Shown here one piece after another: positions 2,813 to 18,746 of a stretch of 53,569 nt of DNA. The DNA lies in IMG/VR virus record IMGVR_UViG_3300045988_160359, positions 1 through 53,569 of that record, one strand, 5' to 3'. The translations under genes and the position numbers were made by a program. Every line of letters begins with the position of its first letter. The stretch's first letter is position 1. Below the pieces are notes generated by a model. That model had not been told where the DNA came from and did no database searches. It was given only the letters and a program-made list of their open reading frames with translations. The stretch comes from a virus.

Positions 2813-2855
2813 GTTTATATATATATTATATAAAAATTTTTATTAAAAATCAATT
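2813..2855. repeat. AT-rich ~40-45 bp element, copy 2, at the left edge of the AT-rich island
   Basis: tatatatatattatataaaaatttttattaaaaatcaa. Compare with 12..52. Confidence 0.45.
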
Positions 2856-2940
2856 AATTATACATTGTACGGCACGCGGAGGACAAAATAGGACAAACAT
2901 ATAAATTATATTTTCAAGATATGGTGAGAGGTGATAAAAA

Positions 2941-3096
2941 TTGGCAAATGAGAATAATACAGTTAAAATCAGTGTTAGACTGACACAAACTGAGAAAGAT
3001 GAATTACAAAATTTTGCCCAAGCGCAGGATTTAACAATGTCTCAGGTTATACGCAAGGCATTGAAAGAGTATATGAATAAAACAGACAGAATCTAA
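2941..3096 (+). CDS. Ribbon-helix-helix (Arc/CopG/omega-like) DNA-binding protein, ~51 aa, TTG start
   Basis: The translation ...VKISVRLTQTEKDELQNFAQAQDLTMSQVIRKALKEYM has the typical RHH beta-strand plus two helices. The TTG start lies 6 nt after GAGAGGTGA. It is below the ORF-track cutoff. Confidence 0.5.
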   Translation: MANENNTVKISVRLTQTEKDELQNFAQAQDLTMSQVIRKALKEYMNKTDRI

Positions 3097-3111
3097 GGAG
3101 TTGCCAAATTA

Positions 3112-3330
3112 ATGCTAAATACTAATAAAAGAAAAATTATATACTCATTAAGAGTATATGTAGGGCTTAAAGAACGAGGGTTTATCCCTATTGCAACAAC
3201 AGAAAATCCTACCAAACCTAATTTTATGTGTTGGATATTTGAACGGTCAGATGAGTTTGATGATGCATTAAAAGAACTTATGCCTGAATGTAAAAATTAT
3301 AAGTCAGGTGGTGAAAAGTCTAATGGCTGA
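3112..3330 (+). CDS. Hypothetical 72-aa protein
   Basis: ATG preceded by AAGGAG. The stop overlaps the start of the next gene as ATGGCTGA. Confidence 0.45.
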   Translation: MLNTNKRKIIYSLRVYVGLKERGFIPIATTENPTKPNFMCWIFERSDEFDDALKELMPECKNYKSGGEKSNG

Positions 3331-3766
3331 TGTTGAAAAACGTTTTGTATTTTATGGAGAATGGTTAAACAATATTAAATCATTAGATTAGGCCACTTAG
3401 GATAAGGTTATTGCTGATATTGTGCGTTATGGCACTAATGAAGATATGTTTTATAGTGATGACCCTGTGGTATCAACTATTGTTAATTTTACCAAAGGGG
3501 CAATTGACCATTCAAAAGATGAATATTTAAAAAAGGTTATGGCAGGTAAAACAAATGGTAGAAAGAAATCTGTTGATGATGATTAGATATTAAAACTTGC
3601 GAGAGAAGGTAAAACCGCGAGTTAGATTGCGGAATTATTGAATTTGAGTGTGAGTTCAGTGAATCATAGCGAGGGATGGAAGCGTCGTAAAGAATCAGTT
3701 GCTGAAAAATCAGTCGTTGAAGAATCGGTGCTTGAATAGAAAAAACCAGTTGAGTTTATATTTTAA
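3323..3766 (+). CDS. DNA-binding protein with a C-terminal resolvase-type HTH; needs read-through of 5 in-frame TAG codons
   Basis: When TAG is read as sense, the single frame gives ...GRKKSVDDD-x-ILKLAREGKTAS-x-IAELLNLSVSSV. Gln fits the HTH consensus at TAS-Q-IAELL. Under the standard code the ORF is only 21 aa long. Confidence 0.5.
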
Positions 3767-3950
3767 TTGCAAATTTGCAAAAATGTTTTTGCAAATTAAT
3801 TGCAATGCAATGCAAAAATGTTTTGCAAATTTTGCAAGTTTGATTGCAACTTGTTGCAATTGCAAATTGCATTATATAATATATATTTTTGCAAAAAAAT
3901 TGCAAAGTTTTTGCAAATTGCAAAAACTTATTTGCAATTTTATTTGACAA
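3766..3950. repeat. Dense array of about 15 copies of the palindromic hexamer TTGCAA, mostly as TTTGCAAA or ATTGCAAT
   Basis: Directly visible in the sequence, for example ttgcaaatttgcaaaaatgtttttgcaaattaattgcaatgcaatgcaaaa...ttgcaattgcaaattgca. Confidence 0.7.
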
Positions 3951-4327
3951 AACTAACGCTGTGGCACTTGAAAAGTGGCAGTAATGGAAAATTTGGAATA
4001 AAAAGTTCCTATTAATGTATAAATATAATATATAAAAAGGATGTATATGGGTATGATAAATTTTTATAAAGGTTCTTATGAGAATTTAGTAAGTAAAGCA
4101 TTAAATTTTTAGAAAATAGATAATATATATTTAACTAATAATAATGATTTATATTTTTGTATTGAGGAAGCAGGAAGGGTAAATAAGGACGTAGAGAATC
4201 CATTTTTAAATGATAATATAAATGAAATATATGGGTTTAATATATAAAAATAAGAAATAAGCGCATACTTACTTTTTATTTGAATTTAATTAGAAAAATT
4301 ATAAATAGGTAAAAGGAGAAATAAAAA

Positions 4328-4807
4328 ATGGGTTATCATAGTGGATTAAATGGGGAATATAATATTCCTGTGGAAGTAAATAATAAGAATGTAGCGCATT
4401 TTAAAAGATGCTGTAAAGAAGAAGTGCCTGAAAAGGCAATTAAAATAGAAACATATTTAAAAGATGATACAATCTATTTTGTATTACCAAATAATTATAA
4501 ACCTGTAAAGATTTGTTTTGATAGTAATGAAGAAGATAAATGCTATGCCTATGGTGGTAAGGGCAATAAAAAGTTGAATACTAATATTGATTTTACTTCA
4601 TCAGACCCTCGTACTACTGGATATTATTAGAATAATGATTATGTAAATATTAGTGATACGACAGATTACGCATAGCCTAATAATACTTATGTTTCTATAT
4701 TTGATTCTCTTCTGGATTTAAGTAAACAAGTAAATGCTATGGGGTATAAAGCAGAAGACGCTAGTGATGTATTAAATAATATATTTGATAAGTTATATAG
4801 TAAATAA
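4328..4807 (+). CDS. Hypothetical protein (~159 aa) with 2 in-frame TAG codons
   Basis: RBS AAAGGAG. Track ORF 4328..4630 ends at a TAG. The same frame then continues to a TAA at 4805-4807. Confidence 0.45.
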
Positions 4808-4961
4808 TTAACAAGGTTAATATTGTGGCATTTGATTTATATATAAAATTATTATATAATATTTATATATAAGAATAGGAGGTGCCATTTTTGAAATTTC
4901 ATTTGAAAAATGGGGTATAAATAGACATTTTGAAAAATGAAATGAAAAAATGAAATGAAAA

Positions 4962-5345
4962 ATGAAAAATGAATTTACTTATGATGAATTGAAAAATAAA
5001 TACAGTAAAAGAGTTGGAAATTATAAAGGCAGAGATGTAATTGTACGCTCTAAATATGATGATTTGGGCGATAATGTATATATTTTATATGATTATAACA
5101 ATGCCCTTATTGTTGATGGCTATTGGATTGCGACTATCAGTGAAGATGGTAGTTTAAATCATAGAAGAGCAACACCCTGGATTAAGATGGATCGAGCCTC
5201 GCCGGCGGGCAGGCCACTAACGTGTCCTGAAAGTGATTCGGGTGGCGAGAATGATATTAGTCTTGATGTTGACTCAACTCTCGTTGATTCTCTCTTGGAA
5301 TCGGCGTATAATGATATTTTGAGCGATTTGATGTATAAAGAATAA
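4962..5345 (+). CDS. Hypothetical protein (127 aa)
   Basis: Intact ORF preceded by an ATGAAA repeat leader. Confidence 0.45.
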   Translation: MKNEFTYDELKNKYSKRVGNYKGRDVIVRSKYDDLGDNVYILYDYNNALIVDGYWIATISEDGSLNHRRATPWIKMDRASPAGRPLTCPESDSGGENDISLDVDSTLVDSLLESAYNDILSDLMYKE

Positions 5346-5347
5346 AA

Positions 5348-5388
5348 AAATGGAGTGGTTTATCGCCACTCCATTTTTTTTAACCAAT
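5348..5388 (+). terminator. Rho-independent terminator closing the island operon
   Basis: ggagtggtttatcgccactcc hairpin followed by tttttttt and preceded by an A-run. Confidence 0.6.
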
Positions 5389-5770: not shown

Positions 5771-6145
5771 TTAAATGCGAGAAATCCAGTCGTTGAGAAT
5801 TTCGTCTACGGTTTTACCTTTCTTAATCGCACCCTTAGAGTTTGTCTCAAACCGGAAACCAGGCAGTTCAATCTTGAAGTTACCAGGGTCCTTGTAGAAT
5901 TTAAGGAAGTTGTCCATTACCTTAATGACGTCCTCGCCCTTCAACTCTGCACCCTTATAGCCGACGTAGGCCGCATAGTCGTTGATAGCATCGGCAACCG
6001 CTTCCGCTCGGGCCATCTTTTCTTTGTCCTTCTTCTGGTCAGCATATGCCTTGGTGGCGTCATTTAGCATCGCAGTCATTTCCTTAGCAATATCCTCAGC
6101 GCTCTCGCCATTCATTAAGCGCGTCAGAATATCGTTCTTATTCAT
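5771..6145 (-). CDS. Hypothetical early protein (124 aa)
   Basis: Intact ORF. Confidence 0.5.
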   Translation of the reverse strand: MNKNDILTRLMNGESAEDIAKEMTAMLNDATKAYADQKKDKEKMARAEAVADAINDYAAYVGYKGAELKGEDVIKVMDNFLKFYKDPGNFKIELPGFRFETNSKGAIKKGKTVDEILNDWISRI

Positions 6146-6249
6146 ATAAATAACCTCTTTTCATTTTGTATACATATATTATACAAAAAATTTTTTTAAA
6201 AGTCAAGTGAGAAAAAAAATGTTTTTTTTTATCATTATAACATAAATTT

Positions 6250-6490
6250 TTTTTTATGTCAAACCGGGCGGCATATGGGTACCGCTCGGGGCCCTTTACG
6301 GGATTTTTAGGGCGCATATGGAGGCCGCTAGAATTACGGAAAATTTTCCATATGGGGGTACAGATCGGAATTTCGGACCGCAGCGCCCGCGCTCGGCCCG
6401 TTGTATCCTCCCCTTTTATTATACCACACTGGGCTCGCGCTGTCAATAGGCAAAATGAACAAAAATTAAGGGTGGATTTCTCCACCCTTA
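6250..6490 (-). promoter_or_regulatory. Variant terminator-promoter-leader module upstream of 5771..6145
   Basis: On the minus strand the gggtggagaaatccaccc hairpin plus T-run terminator is followed by TTGACA-N17-TATAAT and a long GC-rich leader. Confidence 0.4.
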
Positions 6491-6494
6491 ATTT

Positions 6495-7103
6495 TTAATC
6501 CTCCCACGGCAGTTCGGGCGAGATTTCGTCCAGTTCCGCCTTGTCGTTATAGTCAGCGTTGATTGCCGGAATGTCGATAAACGAACGGCTTGCCACATAG
6601 TCAGCCATGTGTACCAGTCTGTCGATAGGAGTAAACGGTCTATCCGCCTTGTTGGTAGTCCACTGACCCATGTGGGACTTGATGGCTTGCGTCAACTCAT
6701 AGGGGCAATCCTCATTGAAAAACACCATCCATGTCCGGCAAACTTGGTCAGCGGCAATCGCGCCGTGCTGGGCATACTGTTCCTTGTCGAACTCGTGTAA
6801 GCCATACTTGGCTGTATCGTGGAGCAGACAGGCAACTCGTGCGTAGTCCTTGCGCTCGTCAGTCAGATACGCCCACTGGCTCATACGGAGCAATTCCTCA
6901 CAGAACCACGCCACCGCCTTAGTGTGCCGAACCAGACCGCCCTCACCCTGCGACATAGTCGGATGGAACTTACCGGAAGAACTTGCGCCGATAGTCTAGA
7001 AATAATCAGGAACGCGGCAGTCGAAGTAGAAACGCACGAACGAGCGCAAATCCTCGGACTGGATAAACTCGATTTCGTGGTCAAAAAACTGGCTCTTATT
7101 CAT
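6495..7103 (-). CDS. HD-domain phosphohydrolase; the reading frame contains one in-frame TAG at codon 36
   Basis: HD motif LLHDTAKY, with an upstream His in GKFHP/VRHTKAV. A strong AAGGAG lies 8 nt before the ATG at 7103. Codon 36 is TAG, at plus-strand 6996-6998. The track ORF runs 6495..6956, but its ATG has no RBS. Confidence 0.55.
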
Positions 7104-7227
7104 AGTAGTATCTCCTTGCTGTTGGTGGGTTCCAGCTCCCTCAGATTGTTTATAGTATAGCGCATTTCGGGACAAAATGCAATAGTCAATTTATACAAAC
7201 TTTCGCTGGAAAAATTATTGAAAATGT

Positions 7228-7350
7228 GTATTGACAAAAATGCCGGGCGCCACAATCGTGAGCGCCCGGTTCATTATACCACAGTCAGAGGGTGTTGTCA
7301 ATAGTCAAATTGAATAAAAAAATTGCTCTCAATTGAGAGCAATTTGATAA
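7228..7350 (-). promoter_or_regulatory. Promoter / hairpin / terminator module, minus-strand promoter only
   Basis: On the minus strand TTGACA-N17-TATAAT is followed by the conserved hairpin ccgggcgcc...ggcgcccgg. The aaattgctctcaattgagagcaattt hairpin sits at the gene boundary. Confidence 0.5.
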
Positions 7351-7673
7351 GTTCGACGAATGGTAATTTCAACAGACTTCGGCTTCACAGGACAGGCAAA
7401 TCTGTCATTTCTCACAAACACGCCGTATCCCATTTTCTGCCAATGCTCACGGTTTTTGTCCTCGTATCGCAAAGTGTTATACTTGGAGAGCGGTATCGAA
7501 AAATCGTAAACAAATTCAGAATTGTGCGGTAAACGGTGAATGGCGGTTTTGCGATAGTTTCTTGTGTGTTCCTGCTGTCTGCGTTTTAGGTCGTTAGTAG
7601 TGCCTATTTTCAGAATGTATACACCATTTTCATCATAATAGTGCCCTACATACAAAAATTCCTTGTTTTTCAC
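7329..7673 (-). CDS. GIY-YIG nuclease-domain protein
   Basis: Motifs YVGHYY...GVYILKIGTT...RRQQEH. The start is placed at an in-frame GTG preceded by GAGGA. The track ORF starts at a TTG at 7727. Confidence 0.55.
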   Translation of the reverse strand: MKNKEFLYVGHYYDENGVYILKIGTTNDLKRRQQEHTRNYRKTAIHRLPHNSEFVYDFSIPLSKYNTLRYEDKNREHWQKMGYGVFVRNDRFACPVKPKSVEITIRRTYQIALN

Positions 7674-7723
7674 ACTTTTTTCCTCATTTTTCAGGGAAAA
7701 TGGGGGATTTCTCCCCCATTTTC

Positions 7724-8122
7724 TCAACTTTTCGGCTTGCGCTTCTGCACAAGGGTCAGTTCATAGGAATTTTCACCGATTTTGAACGCAATCTGTCTCT
7801 CTTTGTTGGTAATTTCCACATTTTCACAGGCATTTTCGCTGTTTTCGGTCAAAAATCTTGCCAATTCAGCGATAATGGACGCTTTCGTGGGATTTGCCTT
7901 GCGTTCTCTCGTGGTGAATTTGTATGCGGTGGGGGTTTTGCGTGTGCCAGTTTTGGCGAATTTCTGTGCGACTTTGAGCTGTTCTTTCGACAGGTCAAAA
8001 TCCTGTGCCTTGCCCTTGTCGATTTCTCGGTCAGAGTTCCACACGGCTTCTGCTTCATCAGCCGTCCAGCCCATTTTCGCCATAGCGTTTTTCAGCCATT
8101 CAGTTTTGGAGATTTCAGCCAT
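7724..8122 (-). CDS. Cassette protein B (132 aa), paralog of 10339..10695
   Basis: Shares the motif PTAYKF-x2-RERKANPTK-x-IIAEL with 10339..10695. Confidence 0.55.
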   Translation of the reverse strand: MAEISKTEWLKNAMAKMGWTADEAEAVWNSDREIDKGKAQDFDLSKEQLKVAQKFAKTGTRKTPTAYKFTTRERKANPTKASIIAELARFLTENSENACENVEITNKERQIAFKIGENSYELTLVQKRKPKS

Positions 8123-8182
8123 AAAACACCGCCTTTTTAGATTTTAGAGGATAGGGGGGGAGAATGTCTCCCCCCTCATACC

Positions 8183-8635
8183 TTACTTGGCGGTGAAATA
8201 CGCCTTGCGCTTATCCTCGATACGGTCTGCCTGACCGTCCAGCACCATCTGACGCACCAGAGAGGAGACTTTCTGGTTGGATGCCTCGGCGATAGCGGGG
8301 ACAGACTTCATCAGAGCGGACACAGTGAACTTCTCGCCCTTGTGGGCGTCCAGGAACGCCTTGATGTCAGCCTTGATACCCTCGTTTGCCACCTGCGTGG
8401 CGGTCGGCTTCTTGTCCACGGTGTTCTTGCGGTCGAGCAGTTCCAGCTCATGCTTGGCGAACTCCGCCATCTCTGCGGGAGAAATGTCCACATAGACAGT
8501 CTCGAAGTCCTCGGAAGTGCCGATACGCTGGGAAATGGGGAACTTGAACTCGCCCACCTCGGCAAAGGTTTTGAGGGCGGTGAAGTAGTCGCGCTTGGTC
8601 ATACGGCGGTTAGCGGTGGAAGTGATAGCAGTCAT
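8183..8635 (-). CDS. Cassette protein A, paralog of 10747..11178
   Basis: Shares HELELLDRKNTVDKKPT-x-TQ and NQKVSSLVRQMVLDGQ...EDKRKA with its paralog. The start is placed at the internal Met of MTAITST. Confidence 0.5.
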   Translation of the reverse strand: MTAITSTANRRMTKRDYFTALKTFAEVGEFKFPISQRIGTSEDFETVYVDISPAEMAEFAKHELELLDRKNTVDKKPTATQVANEGIKADIKAFLDAHKGEKFTVSALMKSVPAIAEASNQKVSSLVRQMVLDGQADRIEDKRKAYFTAK

Positions 8636-8894
8636 AGTATCAACCCTTTCTGCGTTTTTAGGTGTCGCCCACCATATTGTTGTTTCCCTCTTGGAACATC
8701 TATATTCTAACACATATCCGAAGCCTTGTCAAGACTTTTTTTCGGATTTGTGGAATTTTTTTTAAGGTACACGCCCCGCCGGAGAACCTCTCGCCCTCTC
8801 CCTTGGAACAATTATATACTACCACACCCTTGGGCAGATTTCAATAGTCAATACTCACAAAAAATGGGATTTTCAACATCCAAAATTTGTGCAA

Positions 8895-9050
8895 AAAAAC
8901 ACTTGACAAAATTTGTGCTCCGTGGTATAATGGAAATTTCGGGTGCCATAGCCGTGAGCGCCCGACCCATTTTAACACATTTGAGCGCATTTGTCAATAG
9001 GTAAAATGCACAAAAATAAACCAGCGTAGTTGGCTACTACGCTGGTTCCC
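8895..9050. promoter_or_regulatory. Convergent-promoter / hairpin / terminator module
   Basis: The plus strand has TTGACA-N17-TATAAT at ~8903-8931. The minus strand has TTGACA-N17-TAAAAT at ~8997-8969. Between them lies the hairpin cgggtgccatagccgtgagcgcccg. The accagcgtagttggctactacgctggt hairpin follows. Confidence 0.55.
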
Positions 9051-9407
9051 CTGTTGATACTCGCCAGCCGTCCGGACAGCCAGCCCACTTCTACACAGCT
9101 TGACACTTAGAGCAGGCGCAATGCCCATGTAAAGGTCTTTCTCGGCACGCGGTGAATGTGGTTAGAACTTCGTACCCAGTCCCAATTTCTAACGAGGGGT
9201 TCAAGATGGCGGTTGAGAAGAAATTATTGAGTGGGACAAACACTCTATTAAACTCCATCTTGGCTGGGGTCTTAATCAATCTATAATACATATCTAATCA
9301 ATAAATCATAGATTGATTACTAAGGTGGTCGATACAATCGCCATTTCATTTTTCTCACCTCACGATGTTAGTATAGCATAGGCGGGGCTGTTTGTCAAGA
9401 GTTTTTT

Positions 9408-10091
9408 TCAAAATTCCAAATCATCACAGACGCCATAGCCGGAGAAATCGAGGATAACCGGAGAAATGCCAATGTAGCCGATGTTTGAGCCGTGGAGGTC
9501 GTTGATGTGATACTTTTTAACGAACTCACAGAGGGCGATAACCTTGCGTTTGCCGTAGATAGAAACGGCAACTTTCGCCCATAGCCCATCGAGGTCGCGC
9601 CCGTAGCCGTTAACATCAGCTTTGCGGAACTGACGCTCGATTTGAGAAATACGACAGTCGGGGACAGTCTTTGCGATACGCGAGAGACGAGTTTTTATAC
9701 CGTCCTCACTCCAATGGATTTTGTGTGCGCTGTTGGTGATAATCTGTTGTGCGGTAAACGCAACAGGGTCATCACCCTCACGCGGAGGAACAATGTAGCC
9801 AGCCAACTCGGTGGCGGGGAAAAAATCCGCGAGGTTTGCATCTACGGCTTTCTTATACACAGCCACTTCGCGCTCTGCATCCCGCGTCTCCGTAGACCAT
9901 TTGAGGACATACCCCAAATCAGGGAACACCAGACATTCCTTGCTTGCGCCGTTGCTGGACGCTACTTTGACATTAGGATATGCGTCGTGGATAACGCGGG
10001 CTAAGGTGTCCGCGTCTCTGACGCGCCTTGGCTTTTCAGATACCGCCTGCTGAATGGTCAGGATAAAATCCTGAACTCTCGGAAACTTCAT
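9408..10091 (-). CDS. Protein-kinase-like early protein (APH/CotH-like fold; 227 aa)
   Basis: VAVYKK (VAxK-like), YHINDLHGSNIGY (Brenner-type HxDLHxxN catalytic loop) and ILDFSGYG (DFG-like). The RBS is AAAGGAG. Confidence 0.45.
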   Translation of the reverse strand: MKFPRVQDFILTIQQAVSEKPRRVRDADTLARVIHDAYPNVKVASSNGASKECLVFPDLGYVLKWSTETRDAEREVAVYKKAVDANLADFFPATELAGYIVPPREGDDPVAFTAQQIITNSAHKIHWSEDGIKTRLSRIAKTVPDCRISQIERQFRKADVNGYGRDLDGLWAKVAVSIYGKRKVIALCEFVKKYHINDLHGSNIGYIGISPVILDFSGYGVCDDLEF

Positions 10092-10194
10092 CGTTCATCG
10101 CTCCTTTCAGTATCATTATTATAACACATTACAGGGGAATTGCAATAGTCAATACCTACAAAAAACGGGATTTCCAACATCCAAAATTTGTGCA

Positions 10195-10340
10195 AAAAAA
10201 CGCTTGACAAAATTGCCAGTGGGGGTGTATAATAGAAATTTCGAGCGCCACATACGTGGACGCGCGACCGAATTATACCACACGCGCCCGGATTTGTCAA
10301 TAAGCAAAATGCACAAAAATGAGGGAGATTTCTCTCCCTC
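10195..10340. promoter_or_regulatory. Convergent-promoter / hairpin / terminator module
   Basis: Plus strand TTGACA-N18-TATAAT and minus strand TTGACA-N17-TATAAT. The central hairpin is gcgccacatacgtggacgcgc. On the minus strand a gagggagagaaatctccctc hairpin plus T-run terminator follows. Confidence 0.55.
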
Positions 10341-10695
10341 ACTTGCGCGGGCACGACAGCACAACCTTGTATTTTGTTCCATCAAGCGTGAATAAAAATT
10401 CGCGCTCCGCGTTGCTCACGTTCAGGTCAGTCGCGCCGTATGTGGTCAGTGTCTCGGTCAGCAGAGTGATGATAGTCTGCTTTGTGGGATTAGCCTTTCT
10501 TTCTCTTGGTGCGAACTTGTATGCGGTCGGCTGGCGTCCTACTCCCCGCGCTTTCTTGCTTGCCTTTTCCTGTTCTTCGGTCAGCGGAAACGGATTGCCG
10601 CCCTTGTCGATGATAGCATCTTGAACAATAATGTCCTTTGCTTCGGCTTCGGTGCAATCCAGCTTTCGCATGAGGTCGGCAACTCGGTCAGTCAT
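10339..10695 (-). CDS. Cassette protein B' (118 aa)
   Basis: PTAYKFAPRERKANPTKQTIITLL, paralogous to 7724..8122. Confidence 0.55.
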   Translation of the reverse strand: MTDRVADLMRKLDCTEAEAKDIIVQDAIIDKGGNPFPLTEEQEKASKKARGVGRQPTAYKFAPRERKANPTKQTIITLLTETLTTYGATDLNVSNAEREFLFTLDGTKYKVVLSCPRK

Positions 10696-10746
10696 GCGGT
10701 ACTCCTTTCAGGGGTAGGGTGGGGATTGCTCCCCACCCTTTGAGGT

Positions 10747-11178
10747 TTACGCGCTCACCTTGCGGAAGAACGCCTTGCGCTTGTCCTCCACGCGCTCCAC
10801 CTGCTTATCCAGCACCATCTGCCGGACGAGGGAGGACAGCTTCTGATTGCTCATGTCCTTGCAGACGGGGAACTCTTTGAGCATCTCGCTGATGGAATAC
10901 AGCCGGTTGCTCTCCATAGCGGACAGGACAGTGGTCTTGATGACCTCATTCTCCTGCTGGGTCTTGGTGGGCTTCTTATCCACGGTGTTCTTGCGGTCGA
11001 GCAGGTCGATTTCGTGGGTGATGAACTCCACCAGCTTGGGGTCAGCCTTGACCTCGGACAGGTTCAGCAGGGCGGTGAAATTGTCGCGCTTGGTGGGCTT
11101 GCGGGTGGTGGTGTTAGTGTTAGCCATAGTATCAATTCCTTTCTCCATTTGGTTTTGAGGGCTTTGCCCTCCTGACAT
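10747..11178 (-). CDS. Cassette protein A'
   Basis: Paralogous to 8183..8635. The true start may be the internal Met of MANTNTTT at about 11127. Confidence 0.5.
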   Translation of the reverse strand: MSGGQSPQNQMEKGIDTMANTNTTTRKPTKRDNFTALLNLSEVKADPKLVEFITHEIDLLDRKNTVDKKPTKTQQENEVIKTTVLSAMESNRLYSISEMLKEFPVCKDMSNQKLSSLVRQMVLDKQVERVEDKRKAFFRKVSA

Positions 11179-11880
11179 TATCTATTATAACAGCTTGCGC
11201 TGGGATTGTCAAGAGTTTTTTCAAAATTCTTGATTTTTTTTGATAGTGTCAACAGGGGAACGCTCCACAAGGGTTCACAGACGACTTACCACCTCGCCTG
11301 ACGAATAAGGTGTTGCTGTTGGTTCAACGTTTCCATGCGCATGGACGAACTGACCAATCTACTCACTTTTCGTTCATCGTTTGGGTTTACTGCGCTGGTA
11401 TAGTCCTTACTTCCTTTACTCTCACACGGTTCGCGACCCGTGGATTTCTTGGGTGGGGCTATTCCCCTCTTGACATTATCAATTATAACACAGGTGCTGG
11501 GGATTGTCAAGAGGTTTTTTGAAATTTTTCCAAATTTCTGAAACCTGTCTACACAGGCGACACATTAGACGCATCTGCCGTGCCGTTCCCCTCTTGACAT
11601 TATCCATTATAACACAGATGCTGGGGATTGTCAAGAGGGGAAATGCGGGTCAGTTACCGAGTTGTCACACCCGCCAGCGTGGCTCCCCCGAGGAGCAACT
11701 TGCTGTCCCCTCTTAACATTATTCATTATAGCACCTTTGATGGAGTTTGTCAAGAGGGAATTTTGGTCTTTTTTTTCAGTACGGCGCGCTCTCACTTACA
11801 CTTGGGACATTACCTACCATTAGCCCAGCCCACGGGGTCTCACCCCCTCTTGACATTATGTAGTATAGCACAGGTGAGCA
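11165..11880 (-). repeat. Tandem array of five ~50-bp palindromic promoter repeats (CTCTTGACA ... TGTCAAGAG)
   Basis: Copies at ~11168, 11464, 11590, 11707 and 11845. On the minus strand each reads TTGACA-N17-TATAAT(TATAGC). They are separated by 70-250 nt of non-coding sequence. Confidence 0.6.
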
Positions 11881-11929
11881 TGAATTACAATAGGCAAACT
11901 ATACAAGTTTCGGGAAAAATAAATAAAAA

Positions 11930-12090
11930 AATTTGTGTAAAAAAACTCTTGACAAAATTGCTGGCGGGGTGTATAATGGTGAATTCCGGCCGAGACGCGC
12001 GAAATCGGCCGGCCATTATACCATGCCCAGGCGCGTTTGTCAATAGGGAAAATTATACAAAAAATGAGGGGAAAATCCCCTCATTTTTTA
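11930..12090. promoter_or_regulatory. Convergent-promoter / hairpin / terminator module
   Basis: TTGACA-N17-TATAAT on both strands. The central hairpin is ccggccgagacgcgcgaaatcggccgg. A bidirectional terminator follows: gaggggaaaatcccctc with A/T runs on both sides. Confidence 0.55.
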
Positions 12091-12621
12091 GTCCATCTGA
12101 CAAGCGAGAAATGCGTCCCGCTTTTCGTTCAGTTTGACGATTTCACCCGCGATTTTGTCAGCCCTCATAGCCAACAGACGCCCATAGCTTCTGCGCCACG
12201 CCAGCATACCATCGGGATTGACCGTGTAAATATACTTTTCCTTTTCCACGGTCTTGGTGTCCTTACGCTCCGTGCGGAAATTCTGTCCATTCATAGTCCG
12301 CAGAGCGTTCTGCGCCACTTCCGGCAACCGCATCCAGTCATACTCGGTCATCAGGGCGTTGCCATCCTTGTCAATCATCCAGATTTCCGCTTCCCACGGG
12401 TCGAGCGTGATTTCCTTGGTGGATTTCTCGGTGCGAACTGCCTTGATGATACCCTCGTCCCGCAGGAACGCCAGAGAATTGTAGGTGTATCGCCGATAGT
12501 CGTGCTTTGCTTTGGTGAAGTCCTCGGAAGTGAACTCCTTATTCCCGAACAGGTCTACCAGCCACTTGTAGGTCTTGACCGTGCGGTTGAAGTTGTGAAC
12601 GTTAGCGTAGCGAGCTTTCAT
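12088..12621 (-). CDS. Hypothetical early protein (177 aa)
   Basis: Intact ORF. Confidence 0.5.
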   Translation of the reverse strand: MKARYANVHNFNRTVKTYKWLVDLFGNKEFTSEDFTKAKHDYRRYTYNSLAFLRDEGIIKAVRTEKSTKEITLDPWEAEIWMIDKDGNALMTEYDWMRLPEVAQNALRTMNGQNFRTERKDTKTVEKEKYIYTVNPDGMLAWRRSYGRLLAMRADKIAGEIVKLNEKRDAFLACQMD

Positions 12622-12733
12622 AGTTTTTCTCCTTTTCTATTGGTGGGGCTTACCATCGTTTCCCCTACCTTGAATTTGTAATGTTATTATAGCATGGAAT
12701 GGGGGCGTTGTCAACCCCCATTCCAAACTTTTT

Positions 12734-12949
12734 TTACGGGGGATCGTGCTTGCGGTACTCAGTCAGGTCAGGGTCGCCAATCCATTCAGAAAAGTCAACC
12801 CAGGAGTCGAACACGTGAAGAATTTCGATTTCATCAGGTTCAAACACCCCGCCACAACAGGCGCAGATTACGAAACCATTTTCAAGCTGGATACCAGCCT
12901 GAACGCCATCAGAATGGTCGCCCTTAAAAAGCACTTGCTTAATAGGCAT
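12734..12949 (-). CDS. Hypothetical small protein (71 aa)
   Basis: Intact ORF with a CACCGG motif. Confidence 0.4.
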   Translation of the reverse strand: MPIKQVLFKGDHSDGVQAGIQLENGFVICACCGGVFEPDEIEILHVFDSWVDFSEWIGDPDLTEYRKHDPP

Positions 12950-13016
12950 TGTACTTACCTCCTTGTTTTAGTATAGTCATTATACCACATGAGAAAGGGG
13001 CTGTCAAGCCCCATTC

Positions 13017-13673
13017 TCAAAACTTGGGAAAACATTTTACCTCAAAGGGCGCGTCCCATGCGTGGACGTTCTTGGTGTATCGCTTGTGCATCTTCTGACA
13101 GGCGAGGAAAATTTCCATTTCCTGCATAGCGTCAGACAGGGCGGTGTGTTCTTCGGAAAAGTCGGGGTTATCGTGGAGATAACCATACACCGCTTCGACA
13201 GAGGTTGCACAGGTCTTGCCATTCTTGGAACGCTTGCCATGCTCTCGGCAGTATTCCGCATAGGACTTTTTGTGGGTGATAGTTTCCAGTGCCATCAGAT
13301 AAAGGTCGATGAACTCGAAATTATCCAGCAGGTCGCGGAAACAGGTCTTGCAGAAGTCAAAACCGGAATTGTACGCCATCACATAGCGAACGCCGTAATG
13401 GTCGCACAGGTTTTTGACTACCTCATAGGCTTCGCGCTCCGTGGCGATAGCGGAGATTTCGCCAGTTTTGAGCCGTTCGGCATATACGGGAAAATTCTTC
13501 TTGGCGTAGCCATCGAGGGCGATTTCGTCATAATGCTCCATCACCAGCAGGGAAGTGGTGGCGAGGATTTCGCCCTTGCGGTCGTGGATAATCGCGCCCA
13601 CATTATACATTCCCGTGGGGTGAGCCGCGCCGCCTACCGTTTCAGTGTCCAGCGTGCAGTAGATATTTTTCAT
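13017..13673 (-). CDS. DnaQ-like DEDDh 3'-5' exonuclease
   Basis: Exo I LDTETVG, Exo II YNSGFDF and Exo III HTALSDA. Confidence 0.6.
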   Translation of the reverse strand: MKNIYCTLDTETVGGAAHPTGMYNVGAIIHDRKGEILATTSLLVMEHYDEIALDGYAKKNFPVYAERLKTGEISAIATEREAYEVVKNLCDHYGVRYVMAYNSGFDFCKTCFRDLLDNFEFIDLYLMALETITHKKSYAEYCREHGKRSKNGKTCATSVEAVYGYLHDNPDFSEEHTALSDAMQEMEIFLACQKMHKRYTKNVHAWDAPFEVKCFPKF

Positions 13674-13784
13674 TATTCATTCTCCTTTTCTCTTGGTTGG
13701 GCTTACCATCGTTTCCCATACCTTAATTACATTACATATTATAGCAGACAGGGGTGAGGTTGTCAACCCCTGTCTGCTATTTTT

Positions 13785-14231
13785 TTACAGGTTTCGCAAA
13801 ATTTCCATCAGGAGGTCGGCGTTGTATGCCATATTGTGAGTGTTTGCCGTCCACTCGTTGAGGTTGCGCTGTTCGTCATCGAACAAAATCGCGTTGGGGC
13901 AGGTCGCACAGTTGGACTTGGGAACGCCATAGGGGACAATATGGATTTCGTCCCACTGAACGCTGGGGAGATGTTTTGCCAGCCAGTCGCGCTTGACTTC
14001 GGCTACTTCGGCATTGAACTTATCCGTTCCGCTCTTGGACAGCCAGCTGATGATGCCGATATTGTAGCCACGCGCCTGCAAGCGGTTCAGGTAGCGGGCG
14101 AGGGTGGAGAAATGGACAAGCGGGCGAGCGTCCGCATATACGCTTGTGTCAGCGGCTTCCAGCTTTGCCAGCCAGTTAGGGTCGCCATACAGGTCGGCGA
14201 TAGTCCCGTCCATGTCCAGATAGATAGTCAT
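13785..14231 (-). CDS. HAD-superfamily phosphatase (DxDGT)
   Basis: MTIYLDMDGTIAD at the N-terminus after GAAAGGAAG. The track ORF extends to 14354. Confidence 0.55.
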   Translation of the reverse strand: MTIYLDMDGTIADLYGDPNWLAKLEAADTSVYADARPLVHFSTLARYLNRLQARGYNIGIISWLSKSGTDKFNAEVAEVKRDWLAKHLPSVQWDEIHIVPYGVPKSNCATCPNAILFDDEQRNLNEWTANTHNMAYNADLLMEILRNL

Positions 14232-14384
14232 AGTATCAACTTCCTTTCTTGATTGTAATGCTATTATACAGGATAAAACGCAATTTGTCAACAGTTTTTT
14301 TCGGTTTTGCTCTTGGTCATTTCGCACAAACTTTCGGGATGCGCGCTTGGGCAAATTTGTTCAATTTACCTATTGACAAAATTG

Positions 14385-14520
14385 CTGGCAGGGTGTATAA
14401 TGGAAATTTCGAGCGCCAGGGCCGTGGGCGCTCGGCCGAGTATACCACAAATAGGGGTGTTTGTCAATAGGTAAATTGAACAAAAAAAATCTCCCAAATT
14501 TGGGAGATTTTTCAATTTAC
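14385..14520. promoter_or_regulatory. Convergent-promoter / hairpin / terminator module
   Basis: Plus strand TTGACA-N17-TATAAT. Minus strand TTGACA-N17-TATACT. Hairpin tcgagcgccagggccgtgggcgctcgg. Terminator tctcccaaatttgggaga. Confidence 0.55.
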
Positions 14521-14720
14521 TTGTTGGCGTGGAGAATGGAGTGCAGGATTACGACAATGAGCCAAATGACCAGCACCAGCTTCCACGAGAACACGATGGC
14601 GAAAGAGCCGATGGACGCGATGCCGATAGCAGGGAGAAGCCAGCAGAACAGCCAAACCAGTCCGGCGGTACACAGGAAGTCGAAAGCGGCAAGTGCCAAA
14701 AACAACAGAACGATGAACAT
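14517..14720 (-). CDS. Small hydrophobic membrane protein (67 aa)
   Basis: Almost entirely hydrophobic. The RBS is GAGAGGAG. Confidence 0.5.
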   Translation of the reverse strand: MFIVLLFLALAAFDFLCTAGLVWLFCWLLPAIGIASIGSFAIVFSWKLVLVIWLIVVILHSILHANK

Positions 14721-14722
14721 TT

Positions 14723-14920
14723 TTATTCTCCTCTCTTAAATACGATGGTTTTGTGTGTGGTAAAGGTCGCTCCGCGAACAAGCGGGTCATTTGCCAGGTC
14801 ATTTGCGATGAATGACAAGGCTTCATTCTCGTTCTTGAACCACTCGCTATTAGTGAAGCGTTCGCCCCAAGAAGTTATGCCCCACCACTCGATGTTGTAG
14901 TAGACATCTTTGGTTTCCAT
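14723..14920 (-). CDS. Hypothetical small protein (65 aa)
   Basis: RBS AAGGAGGG. Confidence 0.5.
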   Translation of the reverse strand: METKDVYYNIEWWGITSWGERFTNSEWFKNENEALSFIANDLANDPLVRGATFTTHKTIVFKRGE

Positions 14921-14933
14921 TGTTAATCCCTCC

Positions 14934-15083
14934 TTAGTAAATTTGTTCGCCGTTGTGATAGCGTTCGTATCTCGCTTCGAGGAAGTCGAGAATGAACTCG
15001 AAATCGTCCGCGTCCGCGGGGTCTACGAACGCCTTTTCGAGGATTTCGCCGGTGTGGTCATTGAAAACTTTAATCATTTCCAT
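14934..15083 (-). CDS. Hypothetical small acidic protein
   Basis: The start is placed at MEMIKVF after AAGGGAGG. Confidence 0.4.
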   Translation of the reverse strand: MEMIKVFNDHTGEILEKAFVDPADADDFEFILDFLEARYERYHNGEQIY

Positions 15084-15149
15084 TTTGTTGTCCTCCCTTA
15101 TTTGATGATACCATTCTAACACAGAGGGGCTGATTTGTCAACCCCTATT

Positions 15150-15626
15150 TTACAAATTTTTGCTTTCTGCCACGAAATATTTTGCGCCATACTGCGCCAC
15201 AATGTCCTTGACCTTTTTGCTCTCAGCTTGCGTGGCACAATAGAAATTAAATAGCGTGTGTTTGTTGCTAATCTCAATGTATGAGTGTGGAATGTCTCGC
15301 AGGTCAAAATCCACGGCGGCTCGATACTTAGTAGGAACAGTCATTTCGATTTTCCACAACTTTTCTTTGCGCGCCAACTCCTCAACCCACTTAACCGCCA
15401 GCACACCAATGAAATTACAGGCGGCGGTGATGCCCATTTTTGCCAACGTAGAAACGCCGTCAATGTTAGTCAAAATAATAACATAGGAATAGAAGCCATA
15501 GGTTAGCGCATTGATACCGGCGGCAACCCATTTATTGCCTTTAACAGTCAGAATAGACTTGATGGTGGACAGCACCACATTCACAGCGGTACAGATAATG
15601 AATAGAATAATAGCGTTCATAATCAT
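15150..15626 (-). CDS. Membrane protein with two N-terminal TM segments and a cytoplasmic domain
   Basis: The start is placed at MIMNAIILFIICTAV after AAAGGAG. Confidence 0.45.
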   Translation of the reverse strand: MIMNAIILFIICTAVNVVLSTIKSILTVKGNKWVAAGINALTYGFYSYVIILTNIDGVSTLAKMGITAACNFIGVLAVKWVEELARKEKLWKIEMTVPTKYRAAVDFDLRDIPHSYIEISNKHTLFNFYCATQAESKKVKDIVAQYGAKYFVAESKNL

Positions 15627-15762
15627 CACTCCTTTTTCAGTATAATAATAATAACACATTTAATTGAAAATGTCAAGAAAAATTTTTGTCGTAGTTAAAT
15701 TCTCACAAGATTAGTTTTTTGTTCCGTGTAGTTAGTTATAGCTAAACTTGAAAAGAGGGGCG

Positions 15763-16134
15763 TTAATGCCCCTCTGTTAGTTTGTTATACATACTCCACA
15801 GCGTTTCACAGGAATGGTTAGTCTGTTCAGCCATCCATACAATTTGGTCATCAGTCGGCAGGTATTTATCATCACGCCACCCGAAAAATCTTTCACAGGA
15901 CTGGTATGCCTTATACTCGTCCTCTGTCAGTTTGCCGCGCAACCGCCAGTCCCAGCAAACAGAGTCCACCATAGACCATATACACGCGCCTACGATAGTC
16001 AGTACCATAATCGCAACCGTTGCATATAGCACCAGTGTGGATTTTATCATACCATACACCAGCAGACCGAAACCACACACAATGAGGAAATTGCGCCCAT
16101 ACCTTTTAAGGGTCAACTTCTGAAAATCAGACAT
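15763..16134 (-). CDS. Membrane protein (123 aa)
   Basis: Two hydrophobic segments. Confidence 0.5.
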   Translation of the reverse strand: MSDFQKLTLKRYGRNFLIVCGFGLLVYGMIKSTLVLYATVAIMVLTIVGACIWSMVDSVCWDWRLRGKLTEDEYKAYQSCERFFGWRDDKYLPTDDQIVWMAEQTNHSCETLWSMYNKLTEGH

Positions 16135-16345
16135 TTTCTCTACTCCTTAACATATTGTCAGTAAATTCGTTGGAGAACTCCTCGGCGAAATCCTCACCAT
16201 AACCACGATTGGCAATTACCTCCATAACTGTCTCAATGCCGGACATATAATAGGGATTGCCGTTGATGGCATCATAACGCCCTTGGAACATAGGGCATTC
16301 GCGCAGGTCGCTGAAAACCATCTGATACGCTTTCTTCAACTCCAT
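16127..16345 (-). CDS. Hypothetical small protein (72 aa)
   Basis: Intact ORF. Confidence 0.45.
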   Translation of the reverse strand: MELKKAYQMVFSDLRECPMFQGRYDAINGNPYYMSGIETVMEVIANRGYGEDFAEEFSNEFTDNMLRSRENV

Positions 16346-16424
16346 TGTTCTTACCTCCTTGTTTCAGTATAGCCATTATACCGTATTACAGGATAGAAGT
16401 CAATCGTCAAATTGCACAAAATTG

Positions 16425-16560
16425 CGGCGAAAAATTTGTGGAGTATACCTATTGACAAAATGCCGGGCGCCACAATCGTTGGCGCGCGGCCGAAAATGTC
16501 AAGTGAAAAATTATACAAAATTTGGGCTGGATTTTTGTTCATCCAGCCCAAATGATTTTT
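16425..16560. promoter_or_regulatory. Degenerate copy of the promoter / hairpin / terminator module
   Basis: It has TTGACA boxes and the gccgggcgccacaatcgttggcgcgcggc hairpin, but weak -10 elements. The gggctggatttttgttcatccagccc terminator is present. Confidence 0.4.
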
Positions 16561-16807
16561 AGTCCTTTTCAAAAATAAAATCCGGTTTGAAAATGTAGAG
16601 GAACGCCACAGCGTAATGGAAAATCGGAATGATTGAGCCGGTGATGACTGTCAGCCAGTTAGAAAACGGACTGCGCTTGCTTTCGCCCCGGTTCTTGAAT
16701 GCTTCCTGCGCCTGTTCCTTGTTTTTCTTCATAGTCGAAATGATGCTTGCGATGCCCAGCCAGTAGAGAACGATACCGATGATGTAAATAATGAGAATGA
16801 TTTTCAT
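16559..16807 (-). CDS. Small membrane protein (82 aa)
   Basis: Two TM segments. Confidence 0.5.
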   Translation of the reverse strand: MKIILIIYIIGIVLYWLGIASIISTMKKNKEQAQEAFKNRGESKRSPFSNWLTVITGSIIPIFHYAVAFLYIFKPDFIFEKD

Positions 16808-16891
16808 AAATGTATCTCCTTTTTATTTGATTTACTTTTCCGATTTTGGAACGAAGCCACGGTTACTGGCTTTTGCGCTGAGAGTAAATGA

Positions 16892-17173
16892 TTATTCAAA
16901 CAAAACTTTTTCCCGGATGGTATAGCTTGCGATAATAGCACCGGAAAGCAAAACATAGGTTTCAAAACTGTATTTTTTCTTTTTGGAGGTATACGCCCTA
17001 CGCTTGCCGTTGAAATGCTCCTGAATGGTAAAACCCATTTCTGCATCAACGAGGTACAGGAAATAACTCAGTTCTTCAAACAGAGATAAAACCATTTCTT
17101 CGGCATCAGCTCGATTACCAAACAGTGCTATTAGTCTGGATGAATTTTCAAATACGGCATACCCAGTTTTCAT
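16892..17173 (-). CDS. Hypothetical small protein
   Basis: The start is placed at MKTGYAV after AAAGGGAGG. Confidence 0.4.
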   Translation of the reverse strand: MKTGYAVFENSSRLIALFGNRADAEEMVLSLFEELSYFLYLVDAEMGFTIQEHFNGKRRAYTSKKKKYSFETYVLLSGAIIASYTIREKVLFE

Positions 17174-17190
17174 TTTACTTACCTCCCTTT

Positions 17191-17391
17191 TTAGTGCTTT
17201 GGAACGAAACCCCGGCAGAATTGACGACACCAGGTGCGCTCGTTCTTTCGCTTCATACATTTACTCTCGCCCATACTGTTCATTACCTTGCCGTGGTTAT
17301 AACCCCAGTATTCACAGTTGGAACATCTTACCTTGTCAGGCTCTACGCAATAACGGTCGGCCAGTTCAGTTCTGATTTCAAAAGTAGTCAT
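17191..17391 (-). CDS. Cys-rich small protein (66 aa)
   Basis: CVEPDKVRCSNCEYW...C...C. Confidence 0.45.
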   Translation of the reverse strand: MTTFEIRTELADRYCVEPDKVRCSNCEYWGYNHGKVMNSMGESKCMKRKNERTWCRQFCRGFVPKH

Positions 17392-17479
17392 TCGGGGTAT
17401 CCTCCTTTATTTGATGTATTTATTATACCACACTTCTTGGTTGTTGTCAATAAAAAATGTGGGATTTCTCCCACATTTT

Positions 17480-17710
17480 TTATTTATTTTCTAACCGCAT
17501 TTTATCAGATCCGATAAGCGCGGCCAGCAGGTTTGAGGTATCACGGACTTGGCTCATAGAATACTCTTCGCCAATGTTGGAAATAGCGTATTCTTGTTCG
17601 TAGTCATACATCAAATCGAACAGGTGAGAAATGACCTCACGGGCGTCTTGAAGTTTGTTCTTTTCCTCTTGGGTAAGTTGAACCTGAACGTTTGAGGTAA
17701 TAATGTTCAT
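17480..17710 (-). CDS. Small protein (76 aa), paralog of 17726..17953
   Basis: LTQEEKNKLQDAREVISHLFDLMYDYEQEY aligns with LTENERKTLRDAYDILNELYDVIADNDCEY. Confidence 0.45.
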   Translation of the reverse strand: MNIITSNVQVQLTQEEKNKLQDAREVISHLFDLMYDYEQEYAISNIGEEYSMSQVRDTSNLLAALIGSDKMRLENK

Positions 17711-17725
17711 TTGTTGTACCTCCTT

Positions 17726-17953
17726 TTATTTACCGATTTCCACTTTTTCAGTGGGGGCAAGCATTTGAAGCACATTGGCTGTAAGCGCGACGTCCACTCT
17801 GTCATAGCCATTCCCGCAAGTATCGCTCACATACTCGCAATCATTATCGGCGATGACATCATACAATTCATTGAGAATGTCATAGGCGTCGCGCAAGGTT
17901 TTCCGTTCATTCTCTGTCAACTTGGCATAGATGGGAGCTTTGATAATTTCCAT
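17726..17953 (-). CDS. Small protein, paralog of 17480..17710
   Basis: The start is placed at MEIIKAP after AAAGGAG. Confidence 0.45.
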   Translation of the reverse strand: MEIIKAPIYAKLTENERKTLRDAYDILNELYDVIADNDCEYVSDTCGNGYDRVDVALTANVLQMLAPTEKVEIGK

Positions 17954-18022
17954 TTTGATATTCTCCTTTCTCTTGGTATTATCTATTATAGCAGATAAGG
18001 ACTTGTTTGTCAAGCCCTTATC

Positions 18023-18352
18023 TTAATTTTTATTCATCAGGTAGTTAGTCTCGATAGTCCAACCGCAGTCTTGACAGGTGTAGTAAAATGTTTCGCTCAT
18101 ACGGTAGCGAGTAGAGGAAGAGAAGCGGTATTCGCCGCCGCACTTGACACATACGCCATTATTGAAAGTGTCGCAGTCATTGATGTGTTCCTGTCCCATC
18201 ATAGCACCAACACCGAAGAAGATAGCACAGCAGATAATGAATGACAGTACCTTGCTCACCCAACGGTCGCAACACCCAATAGCAACAGATAAACCGATAG
18301 GCAGACCAGCGACACCACCCATAAGCAGACCACCGATAATTACATCAGACAT
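18023..18352 (-). CDS. Membrane protein with a C-terminal zinc ribbon
   Basis: The start is placed at MSDVIIGG after AAGGGAGG. CVKCGG...CQDCG. Confidence 0.45.
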   Translation of the reverse strand: MSDVIIGGLLMGGVAGLPIGLSVAIGCCDRWVSKVLSFIICCAIFFGVGAMMGQEHINDCDTFNNGVCVKCGGEYRFSSSTRYRMSETFYYTCQDCGWTIETNYLMNKN

Positions 18353-18422
18353 TTTTTCGTCCTCCCTTGTTTTGTTATACTCATTATAGCAGAAATGGGG
18401 CTTGTTGTCAAGCCCCAATTTT

Positions 18423-18746
18423 CTACTTTACTACATAAAATTCGGGGTGGCGTTCTTCATTCTTGCGAATGCGCTTGACCAACTGTTGAGGTAAGCGGTT
18501 TTTGCCAGCACTCTTGTATATAGCGACAGCCCGTTCAAAGGTTGCGGGGTATGCGGTGATGATGAAATTCTCATATAAGTCCAGCACCAAAATGATGCCA
18601 GTCGAGAGCAAACGCAGGCGCGCAGTTTGGCGTTGGTCAATGACCTCAATCATCACGCGGTCAGAATATCCGAGATATTCCTGTAAGAGGGCGAGCCGGT
18701 TAGCCCGCTCCTCTGTCAGATGGTTCGACATAGTGTAGTTTTCCAT
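18423..18746 (-). CDS. Hypothetical protein (~107 aa)
   Basis: The start is placed at MENYTMSN after GGGGTGG. The track's 186-aa ORF fuses it with the upstream gene. Confidence 0.4.
   Translation of the reverse strand: MENYTMSNHLTEERANRLALLQEYLGYSDRVMIEVIDQRQTARLRLLSTGIILVLDLYENFIITAYPATFERAVAIYKSAGKNRLPQQLVKRIRKNEERHPEFYVVK

Follow-up and report, generated by a model that had tools for sequence, protein, structure and literature searches.

The 53,569-bp window analysed here (virus record IMGVR_UViG_3300045988_160359, positions 1 to 53,569) carries a dense array of the palindromic hexamer TTGCAA directly behind a trio of small genes, which encode a ribbon-helix-helix (RHH) protein, a small conserved protein, and a 147-aa protein that joins a DUF6291 domain to a helix-turn-helix (HTH) of the HTH_7 family. 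The array is a real, selected repeat field of the protein-binding type, and it is conserved in relatives. Very probably it is the cooperative binding field of the adjacent DUF6291/HTH_7 protein, and it buries a promoter. As to its role, we lean, tentatively, toward an origin of the iteron type, or a site of replication control, to which the HTH protein would bind in a phage of ~190 kb.

Fourteen exact copies of TTGCAA lie between positions 3767 and 3937, out of 27 in the entire window, and with three one-off copies they bring the number of TGCA cores to 17 in 185 bp (3766-3950). The initial annotation had seen about 15 copies in 185 bp beside RHH and HTH genes, and this holds; it had also described them as mostly TTTGCAAA, which is the case for only five of the 14. 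Flanks of the form WTTGCAAW (W, A or T) are found on 11 of the 14. The annotation had proposed a shuffled-sequence control. Mononucleotide shuffles of the 185 bp yield a mean of 0.05 TTGCAA and a maximum of 3, so base composition does not explain the density, and even when a very conservative local shuffle keeps the TG, GC, and CA dinucleotides, 20,000 trials average 4.6 copies and never exceed 12. Nowhere in the window is another hexamer packed so densely. In the DNA outside the array, TGCA is 2.4-fold depleted (100 observed, 240 expected) and TTGCAA stands at 0.43 of expectation, as part of a general depletion of palindromes in the window. The palindromic hexamers that are absent or nearly absent window-wide include CTCGAG, GGATCC, TGTACA, GCATGC, and AGATCT, among others. 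This loss, together with the depletion of TGCA, is a restriction-avoidance signature against which the TGCA-rich array stands out. Given the shuffles and the depletion outside the array, chance and composition are rejected as the source of the cluster. Two other candidates were discarded. The array is not a coding repeat: the three open reading frames (ORFs) that overlap it (51-82 aa) consist of the repeats and are unsupported, and it is intergenic in all relatives. Nor is it a known RNA family, as Rfam gives zero matches at gathering thresholds.

Conservation carries the argument further. The family of the 147-aa protein is large and uncultured, with 871 clusters at an E-value of 1e-3 or better; a single-protein scan of IMG/VR for close relatives returned nothing, but an alignment-based scan found them. 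The comparison covers 19 lineages (20 loci tabulated) with 44-95% protein identity. The RHH/small-protein/HTH trio is kept in every locus, and in 19 of 19 lineages between 7 and 25 sites follow directly after the HTH stop codon, made up of TTGCAA, of TTGTAA/TTACAA and TTGTACAA, or of a mixture. Such arrays beside RHH genes, which the first description suggested seeking in other genomes, lie at the same position in all of these lineages. The arrays span 140-350 bp in the relatives and ~170 bp in the window, where the first copy begins 1 nt past the TAA (3764-3766) of the HTH gene, as had been annotated. Between the window and L018, its closest relative, identity is 97.8% for the array, 86-92% for the three genes, and 51-64% for the flanking intergenic DNA. 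Since its identity exceeds that of both genes and flanks, the array, spacers included, must be under strong purifying selection. A scan of IMG/VR for TTGCAA triplets returned mostly chance hits or 9-bp coding tandems, none adjoining homologues of the trio. Two unrelated phage contigs carry irregular intergenic (G)TTGCAA(A/C) clusters (L034, 5860-6030; L123, 8410-8570), with no trio homologue nearby.

Listed family members are mostly ~126 aa long, within a range of 126-147 aa, and many are encoded on contigs of 180-205 kb, so that the window is probably a fragment of a ~190-kb genome. In one complete genome of the family, IMGVR_UViG_3300045988_112927 (190,353 bp), the array lies at about 92.4-92.8 kb, just below coordinate 92,777. 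The family is found only on phage-like contigs or those of metagenome-assembled genomes (MAGs), the latter pointing to Lachnospiraceae and Eubacteriales. Among deposited phages, one weak match (36%) came from a protein search, and no similarity was detected at the DNA level.

The array is made of two clusters around a promoter (Table 1). The initial annotation had placed the array ahead of a promoter-like AT-rich stretch, but the promoter-like element sits within it: the -35 hexamer is itself a repeat unit, and the +1 region coincides with the first site of the right-hand cluster. This cluster forms a long dyad centred at ~3916 (fold z = -4.5), and in most relatives it is closed by a GC-rich hairpin. 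A core-anchored alignment recovers TTG(C/T)A(A/C)-N15-17-TA(C/T)A(A/T)T in most of the 19 lineages, even though the core spacer falls into two sequence classes, CTATCTTATATCT (class A) and GCAATATATAATA, each a 7-bp tandem. That the hexamer geometry is kept despite the two spacer classes is the signature of a predicted sigma-A-type promoter. In the window, the spacer is AT-only, and the AT-only centre (3866-3888, ~20 bp) fits the promoter; in class A lineages the centre is CTATCTTATATCT, and the -10 overlaps a TTACAA site. The spacer tandem (window 3866-3881; class A, for example L013 at ~6655-6672) reads TATCTTA-TATCTTA or ATATATA-ATATA(C/T)A. It is conserved beyond the needs of a promoter spacer, which suggests a second bound factor. 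Host-type promoters also occur elsewhere in the window, such as the near-consensus TTGACA-17-TGnTATAAT that precedes a sigma-factor-like gene.

Table 1. Features of the trio locus and its surroundings (positions in the window).
Feature	Position	Strand	Remarks
Leftward sigma-A-type promoter, TTGATT-17-TATAAT	2825..2853	-	Consensus scan; divergent early operon, left border of the module
Two AGGACAAA boxes, 10 bp apart	2880..2897	+	Exact at 2880 and 2890; just 5' of the RHH gene
Ribbon-helix-helix protein, 51 aa, TTG start	2941..3096	+	Pfam DUF6290 (4e-7), RHH_1, RHH_9
Small conserved protein, 72 aa	3112..3330	+	Weak DUF5659 match; always between the RHH and HTH genes
Putative array-binding protein, 147 aa	3323..3766	+	N-terminal DUF6291, GRKK arm, resolvase-type HTH_7
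Left repeat cluster, nine exact TTGCAA	3767..3872		3767, 3775, 3789, 3800, 3823, 3832, 3844, 3854, 3860
One-off units of the left cluster			ATGCAA at 3805 and 3810; TTGCAT at 3867
Embedded sigma-A-type promoter	3860..3887	+	-35 TTGCAA (3860-3865), 16-nt spacer, -10 TATATT (3882-3887)
Mirror-image promoter candidate	3905 to 3878	-	
Right repeat cluster	3888..3951		TTGCAA at 3889, 3900, 3911, 3918, 3932
AT-rich spacer without ORF, 377 bp	3951..4327		51% identity to L018
Cargo gene, 159 aa, two TAG codons	4328-4807	+	No family match
Cargo gene, 127 aa	4962-5345	+	No family match
Terminator-like stem-loop, A-/T-runs on both sides	5344..5380	- (scan hit)	Closes the + strand island

Gaps between nearest neighbouring sites are bimodal (8-9 and 12 bp), and when 268 sites are pooled, pairs 22 bp apart are enriched (38 against 24.2, z = 4) and a spectral peak appears at ~10.75-11 bp, as for a multi-copy repeat in rough helical phase. 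Strict helical phasing was rejected as a general rule and holds only as the pooled 22-bp signal: in gap permutations it is significant only in the window (p = 0.04), L009 (0.008), and L147 (0.03), L139 being uninformative because its run was truncated to three sites.

Which protein reads the hexamer is suggested by covariation. In all 15 lineages whose HTH recognition helix carries [D/N]H, TTGCAA is the majority site. In the lineages with EH (L009), DK (L005), or YH (L155) there is not a single TTGCAA, and L146 (DK) is mixed. The association between helix and hexamer is significant by Fisher's test (p = 0.004, 19 lineages, uncorrected for phylogeny). The beta-strand contacts of the RHH protein (T-S-R), on the other hand, are identical in L001, L009, and L013 despite their differing arrays. 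The specificity for TTGCAA thus tracks the HTH recognition helix and not the RHH beta-strand, and these alignments point to the HTH protein as the binder. They also yield a putative recognition code that can be tested, in which a [D/N]H helix would pair with the central GC of TTGCAA. The earlier proposal that RHH dimers bind the array is not supported, and its geometry also differs from that of classic RHH operators and centromeres, which lie upstream of the RHH operon while this array lies downstream. A better candidate is the box GGACAAA(A/G)TA, found 5' of the RHH gene in every lineage and often followed by degenerate copies phased at 10 bp (L013 5583-5612; L017). It is likely the operator of the RHH protein or of the small protein. 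Its heptad-N3-heptad form resembles the CtsR operator. GGACAAA is not enriched as a genome-wide promoter motif. The RHH protein also matches Arc/CopG-like repressors in PHROG, and its match to the ORF56-type copy-control protein of NCBIfam falls below the cut-off. Very short repeat arrays overlap promoters in the omega (pSM19035), ParG, and CopG systems. In our locus this likeness applies to the 7-bp tandem spacer and the GGACAAA repeats, which are plausible RHH targets, and not to the TTGCAA field.

The domains of the 147-aa protein agree with this assignment. Pfam returns DUF6291 (1e-11; 45.1 bits for a gathering cut-off of 27.2) and HTH_7 (4e-7), and the precomputed DUF6291 assignment is shared by nearly all listed homologues. 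We found no paper on DUF6291, an uncharacterised family. In a profile search of PDB sequences, residues 51-113 match residues 114-177 of the Tn3/gamma-delta resolvase, covering the end of helix E, the GR(K/R)K minor-groove arm, and the HTH, an arrangement also shared with Hin. The protein has no recombinase catalytic domain, as Pfam finds only DUF6291 and HTH_7 and the PDB match begins at resolvase residue 114; and the array offers many sites, where serine recombinases use 2-6 half-sites. A resolvase-type DNA-binding domain reads a core of ~6 bp together with the minor groove of an A/T tract, and hix half-sites have a 6-bp core with A/T-tract flanks, like the sites of the array. The W-rich flanks of TTGCAA therefore fit such a domain. 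It is very unlikely that the array is a res- or attP-like site for recombination or synapsis, on which a catalytically dead, resolvase-derived protein would organise arms around a conserved core. The resolvase-like segment and a conserved core flanked by arm sites of variable number recall such sites, but neither a recombinase catalytic domain nor an integrase is present in the window or at the loci, and the core fits a promoter with correct hexamer spacing.

A model can be proposed in which the RHH protein, the small protein, the DUF6291/HTH_7 protein, and the array form a conserved four-part module, with the array as its cis-acting half. The 147-aa protein would insert its HTH into the major groove of TTGCAA and its GRKK arm into the minor groove of the flanking A/T. 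Assembly would be cooperative, in ~22-bp units of two hexamers each, extending for ~170 bp in the window and for as much as ~350 bp in relatives. The resulting nucleoprotein complex would cover the -35, the +1, and in many lineages the -10 of the embedded promoter, which might either be silenced in this way or serve to activate or prime an origin. The RHH protein, bound to the GGACAAA repeats upstream, would repress the operon in the manner of CopG.

The origin reading is favoured because the N-terminal domain is the one that lambda-O-like/DnaD-like phage initiators carry at the origin-recognition position and because the layout, a gene followed by iterons, is that of the staphylococcal pathogenicity islands (SaPIs). 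When the window protein's family is aligned with P0126, a Bacteroides fragilis prophage protein, the match covers the N-domain and arm of the latter (hhalign 95.3%, E = 2e-8), and the two share PHROGs 15768, 19415, and 16304. Canonical DUF6291 proteins, such as that of MT835900 and P0126, are 250-305 aa long. The C-domain of P0126 matches the PHROG 'replication initiation O-like' (8.5e-29) and also 'DnaD-like helicase loader', and the canonical C-domain is 84-87% identical to that of ~300-aa proteins with full-length matches to 'replication initiation protein' PHROGs. The canonical genes sit in ERF/NinG/helicase/RusA modules, that of P0126 in an ERF/NinG/helicase module. In these initiator genes, a short-repeat array and then an AT-rich tract come directly after the codons of the N-domain, and the array changes with the N-domain: DUF6291-type initiators carry AACCAA(A/G), including three 33-bp tandem copies, and those with an alternative N-domain carry four copies of AATCACGGAAC at an 11-bp period. 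Repeats placed after the N-domain codons are the arrangement of lambda O and its ori. The arrays in the linker-coding DNA of the Bacteroides prophage initiators (L163 7215-7320; L162 5205-5300; L165 7369-7415) are probably unannotated origins inside genes. Our locus differs from these in that HTH_7 replaces the C-domain, the array lies past the stop codon and not in a linker, and no replication module surrounds it. SaPI origins have 6-12 penta- or hexanucleotide iterons directly 3' of rep, split evenly by a centre rich in AT (PMC9371898). As in our locus with its putative binder, the short iterons come just after the ORF of the protein that binds them, in both directions (PMC9371898). However, SaPI Rep is a helicase that loads itself and carries a winged-helix C-domain, while the protein studied here, of 126-147 aa, has no ATPase and combines DUF6291 with a resolvase-type HTH. 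The centre here is a short promoter, and the copies reach ~25.

Several observations weigh against an origin. The 147-aa protein lacks the C-terminal O/DnaD-like domain, of which no copy was found in 574 kb of family DNA, so that it cannot recruit a helicase in the known way. There is no recognisable replication gene in the window or within 6 kb on either side in seven lineages, nor in ~16 kb leftward of the locus in one relative, and there are no DnaA boxes near the array. The AT-rich centre measures only ~20 bp and is a well-formed promoter, and helical phasing is weak within single arrays. The protein returned no informative fold match, and similarity to SPP1 G38P was sought and not found. 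In the window its TAG-rich gene (3.4% of codons) resembles late genes, which is odd for an initiator. Finally, some lineages have extra sites near other promoters, as would be expected for a transcription factor: four TTGCAA lie in L013 (5433-5475) and L147 (3433-3473) within the leader of the leftward early operon, from its TTGATT-17-TATAAT promoter to the first ribosome-binding site, and in L001 and L017 the extra sites are instead upstream of the RHH promoter.

These last sites bear on a less likely alternative, a pure transcriptional switch, in which the array would be a high-density operator without any role in replication. The HTH protein, alone or with the RHH or small protein, would coat it cooperatively and shut or time the embedded promoter, the neighbouring early promoters being controlled as well in some lineages; the five TAG codons of the HTH gene in the window would delay synthesis of the repressor until the code switch. 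Such a switch accords with the promoter's construction out of repeat units (-35, class A -10 over TTACAA, first right-hand site at ~+1), with the extra sites in the early-operon leader and upstream of the trio promoter, with regulators that are small RHH and HTH proteins, with variable cargo downstream of a conserved control region, and with the lack of replication genes nearby. Still, 7-25 sites over 140-350 bp are far more than it takes to occlude a promoter, the N-domain is of the type found in O-like initiators, the genes of which bear cognate repeat arrays, and the entire array, spacers too, is more conserved than coding DNA. Moreover, several lineages, L150, L157, and L160 among them, have another promoter of the extended -10 type, TGATATAAT, placed after the GC-rich hairpin at the array's end and ahead of the first cargo gene. 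The cargo may thus be independent of the array promoter, which may yield only a short RNA. We rank the origin above the switch because the N-domain homology and the layout are specific, whereas promoter occlusion suits both. The initial annotation had offered a copy-control site of a phage-plasmid and a high-density operator; both roles are compatible with these data, and it is the partition-like part of the proposal that is not supported.

Partition is indeed improbable. The RHH or HTH protein would coat two repeat sets flanking a promoter, much as ParR coats parC or omega its heptads, and a motor ATPase encoded elsewhere would segregate a phage-plasmid. The best parallel is parC of plasmid R1, where two sets of five 11-bp iterons surround a 39-bp promoter region, 159 bp in total, and are bound by an RHH protein (PMC2241845). 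Our locus likewise has two phased repeat sets flanking a promoter, an RHH gene, and a length of ~160 bp (PMC2241845); it also shows a period of ~11 bp in the window, and its copy number differs among lineages. Yet its units are 6-bp palindromes at alternating spacings of 8-9 and 12-13 bp and not 11-bp direct iterons, and the repeat type varies without a matching change in the RHH contact residues. Relative to the RHH operon the array is downstream, over a different, rightward promoter and not over the regulators' own, near which extra sites are few and confined to some lineages. A ParA-like ATPase had been named as something to look for: no ParA-type Walker A motif exists in the window, no ParM/ParA or other ATPase gene within 6 kb on either side in seven lineages, and, in one lineage followed for ~16 kb to one side, no partition ATPase among ORFs of at least 120 aa. 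The confinement of the family to phage-like and MAG contigs, never an isolate plasmid, also speaks against it.

A packaging (pac) site is even less probable. Here, the HTH protein would be a TerS-like recognition subunit on hexamer clusters flanking a cleavage region. Phages of the pac type typically have the binding site beside the recognition gene. P1 pac consists of 4 + 3 TGATCA hexamers, Dam sites in two clusters around a central region, inside pacA and beside the terminase genes; SPP1 has pacL and pacR. The two hexamer clusters around a centre recall P1, and the size of the protein (126-147 aa), a weak match through its HTH to the PHROG 'terminase small subunit' (E = 1e-3), and the TAG-rich, late-like coding in the window are in keeping with a packaging protein. 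But the linkage to a terminase is missing: the large terminase gene TerL (28207-29940) is 24 kb away, with candidate partners of its own upstream at 25905 and 27009. In addition, known TerS proteins have their domains in another order, and the N-domain belongs to initiators. A contig break near the array in L141 is explained by repeat-induced breakage of the assembly.

The genomic context is that of a recoded phage. The window contains two compositional and coding regimes of phage DNA, compared here as 2941-5345 plus 25905-53569 (recoded) and 87-2758 plus 5771-24000 (TAG-avoiding). From ~5.7 to 24 kb, genes are mostly on the - strand, at 42-51% GC and in the standard code, and TAG is avoided (stops of the - strand early genes: 28 TAA, 13 TGA, and 2 TAG). 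The modules at 2.9-5.4 kb and 25.9-53.5 kb are on the + strand at ~30% GC (25-35% in a 1-kb profile), and they are open only when TAG counts as a sense codon, which raises ORF coverage from 0.57 (code 11) to 0.94. The HTH gene belongs to these modules. It is open only if its five in-frame TAG codons (3389, 3398, 3584, 3623, and 3737) are read as sense, probably as Gln, for example in TAS-Q-IAELL of the HTH. ARAGORN found no tRNA in the window, so that the suppressor must be encoded elsewhere in the ~190-kb genome.

Around the array, the trio and cargo form a small + strand island flanked by two - strand blocks, and in five of six relatives checked the GC content of the trio island is 4-10 points below that of its flanks. 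The divergent early operon promoter on its left, TATATTATAT..TTTTTATAAAAAATCAA, is kept in all relatives. To the right, the cargo genes are not conserved; they vary by lineage with mosaic sharing. The spacer that separates them from the array, judging from its low identity, is probably outside the conserved element.

Repeat fields beside the gene of their binding protein are of a known kind. What is new here is the uncharacterised protein family, the 6-bp palindromes at alternating spacing in up to ~25 copies, the promoter hexamers that are themselves repeat units, and the setting in a TAG-recoded family of ~190-kb phages. A wider reading, which we consider doubtful, is that of an undescribed minimal replicon or control module, widespread in the ~190-kb TAG-recoded phages associated with Lachnospiraceae. 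An initiator N-domain joined to a resolvase-type HTH, and lacking any domain to recruit a helicase, would polymerise on a 140-350-bp palindrome field containing its own promoter; as the gene is TAG-loaded in some lineages, assembly, and with it origin firing or the shut-off of early promoters, would be gated by the code switch. Protein clusters with this module number at least several hundred and come from uncultured gut phages of otherwise opaque biology; almost all genes that neighbour the module are unannotated. The analysis gives it a cis site that can be tested, together with a probable binding protein and a putative recognition code. If the array is an origin, it offers a handle for Lachnospiraceae shuttle replicons, and DUF6291 would be the domain with which a class of O-like initiators recognises its origins. 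If it is a switch, stop-codon recoding becomes linked to timed promoter shut-off.

Other parts of the window deserve mention. Between 19000 and 23500 there are few convincing ORFs in either code and no Rfam match, but several small tandem repeats, such as a 28-bp unit repeated 2.6 times at 23445-23517. The late module comprises a sigma-like gene, TerL, a virion structural protein, and a 2765-aa ORF. It opens at 25840-26966 with the sigma-factor-like gene (phrog_5767, E = 2e-53), whose product ends in a C-terminal zinc ribbon. Between the large terminase and the next large late ORF lies an ORF resembling a homing/HNH endonuclease (29951-30307; phrog_9084, E = 5e-27).

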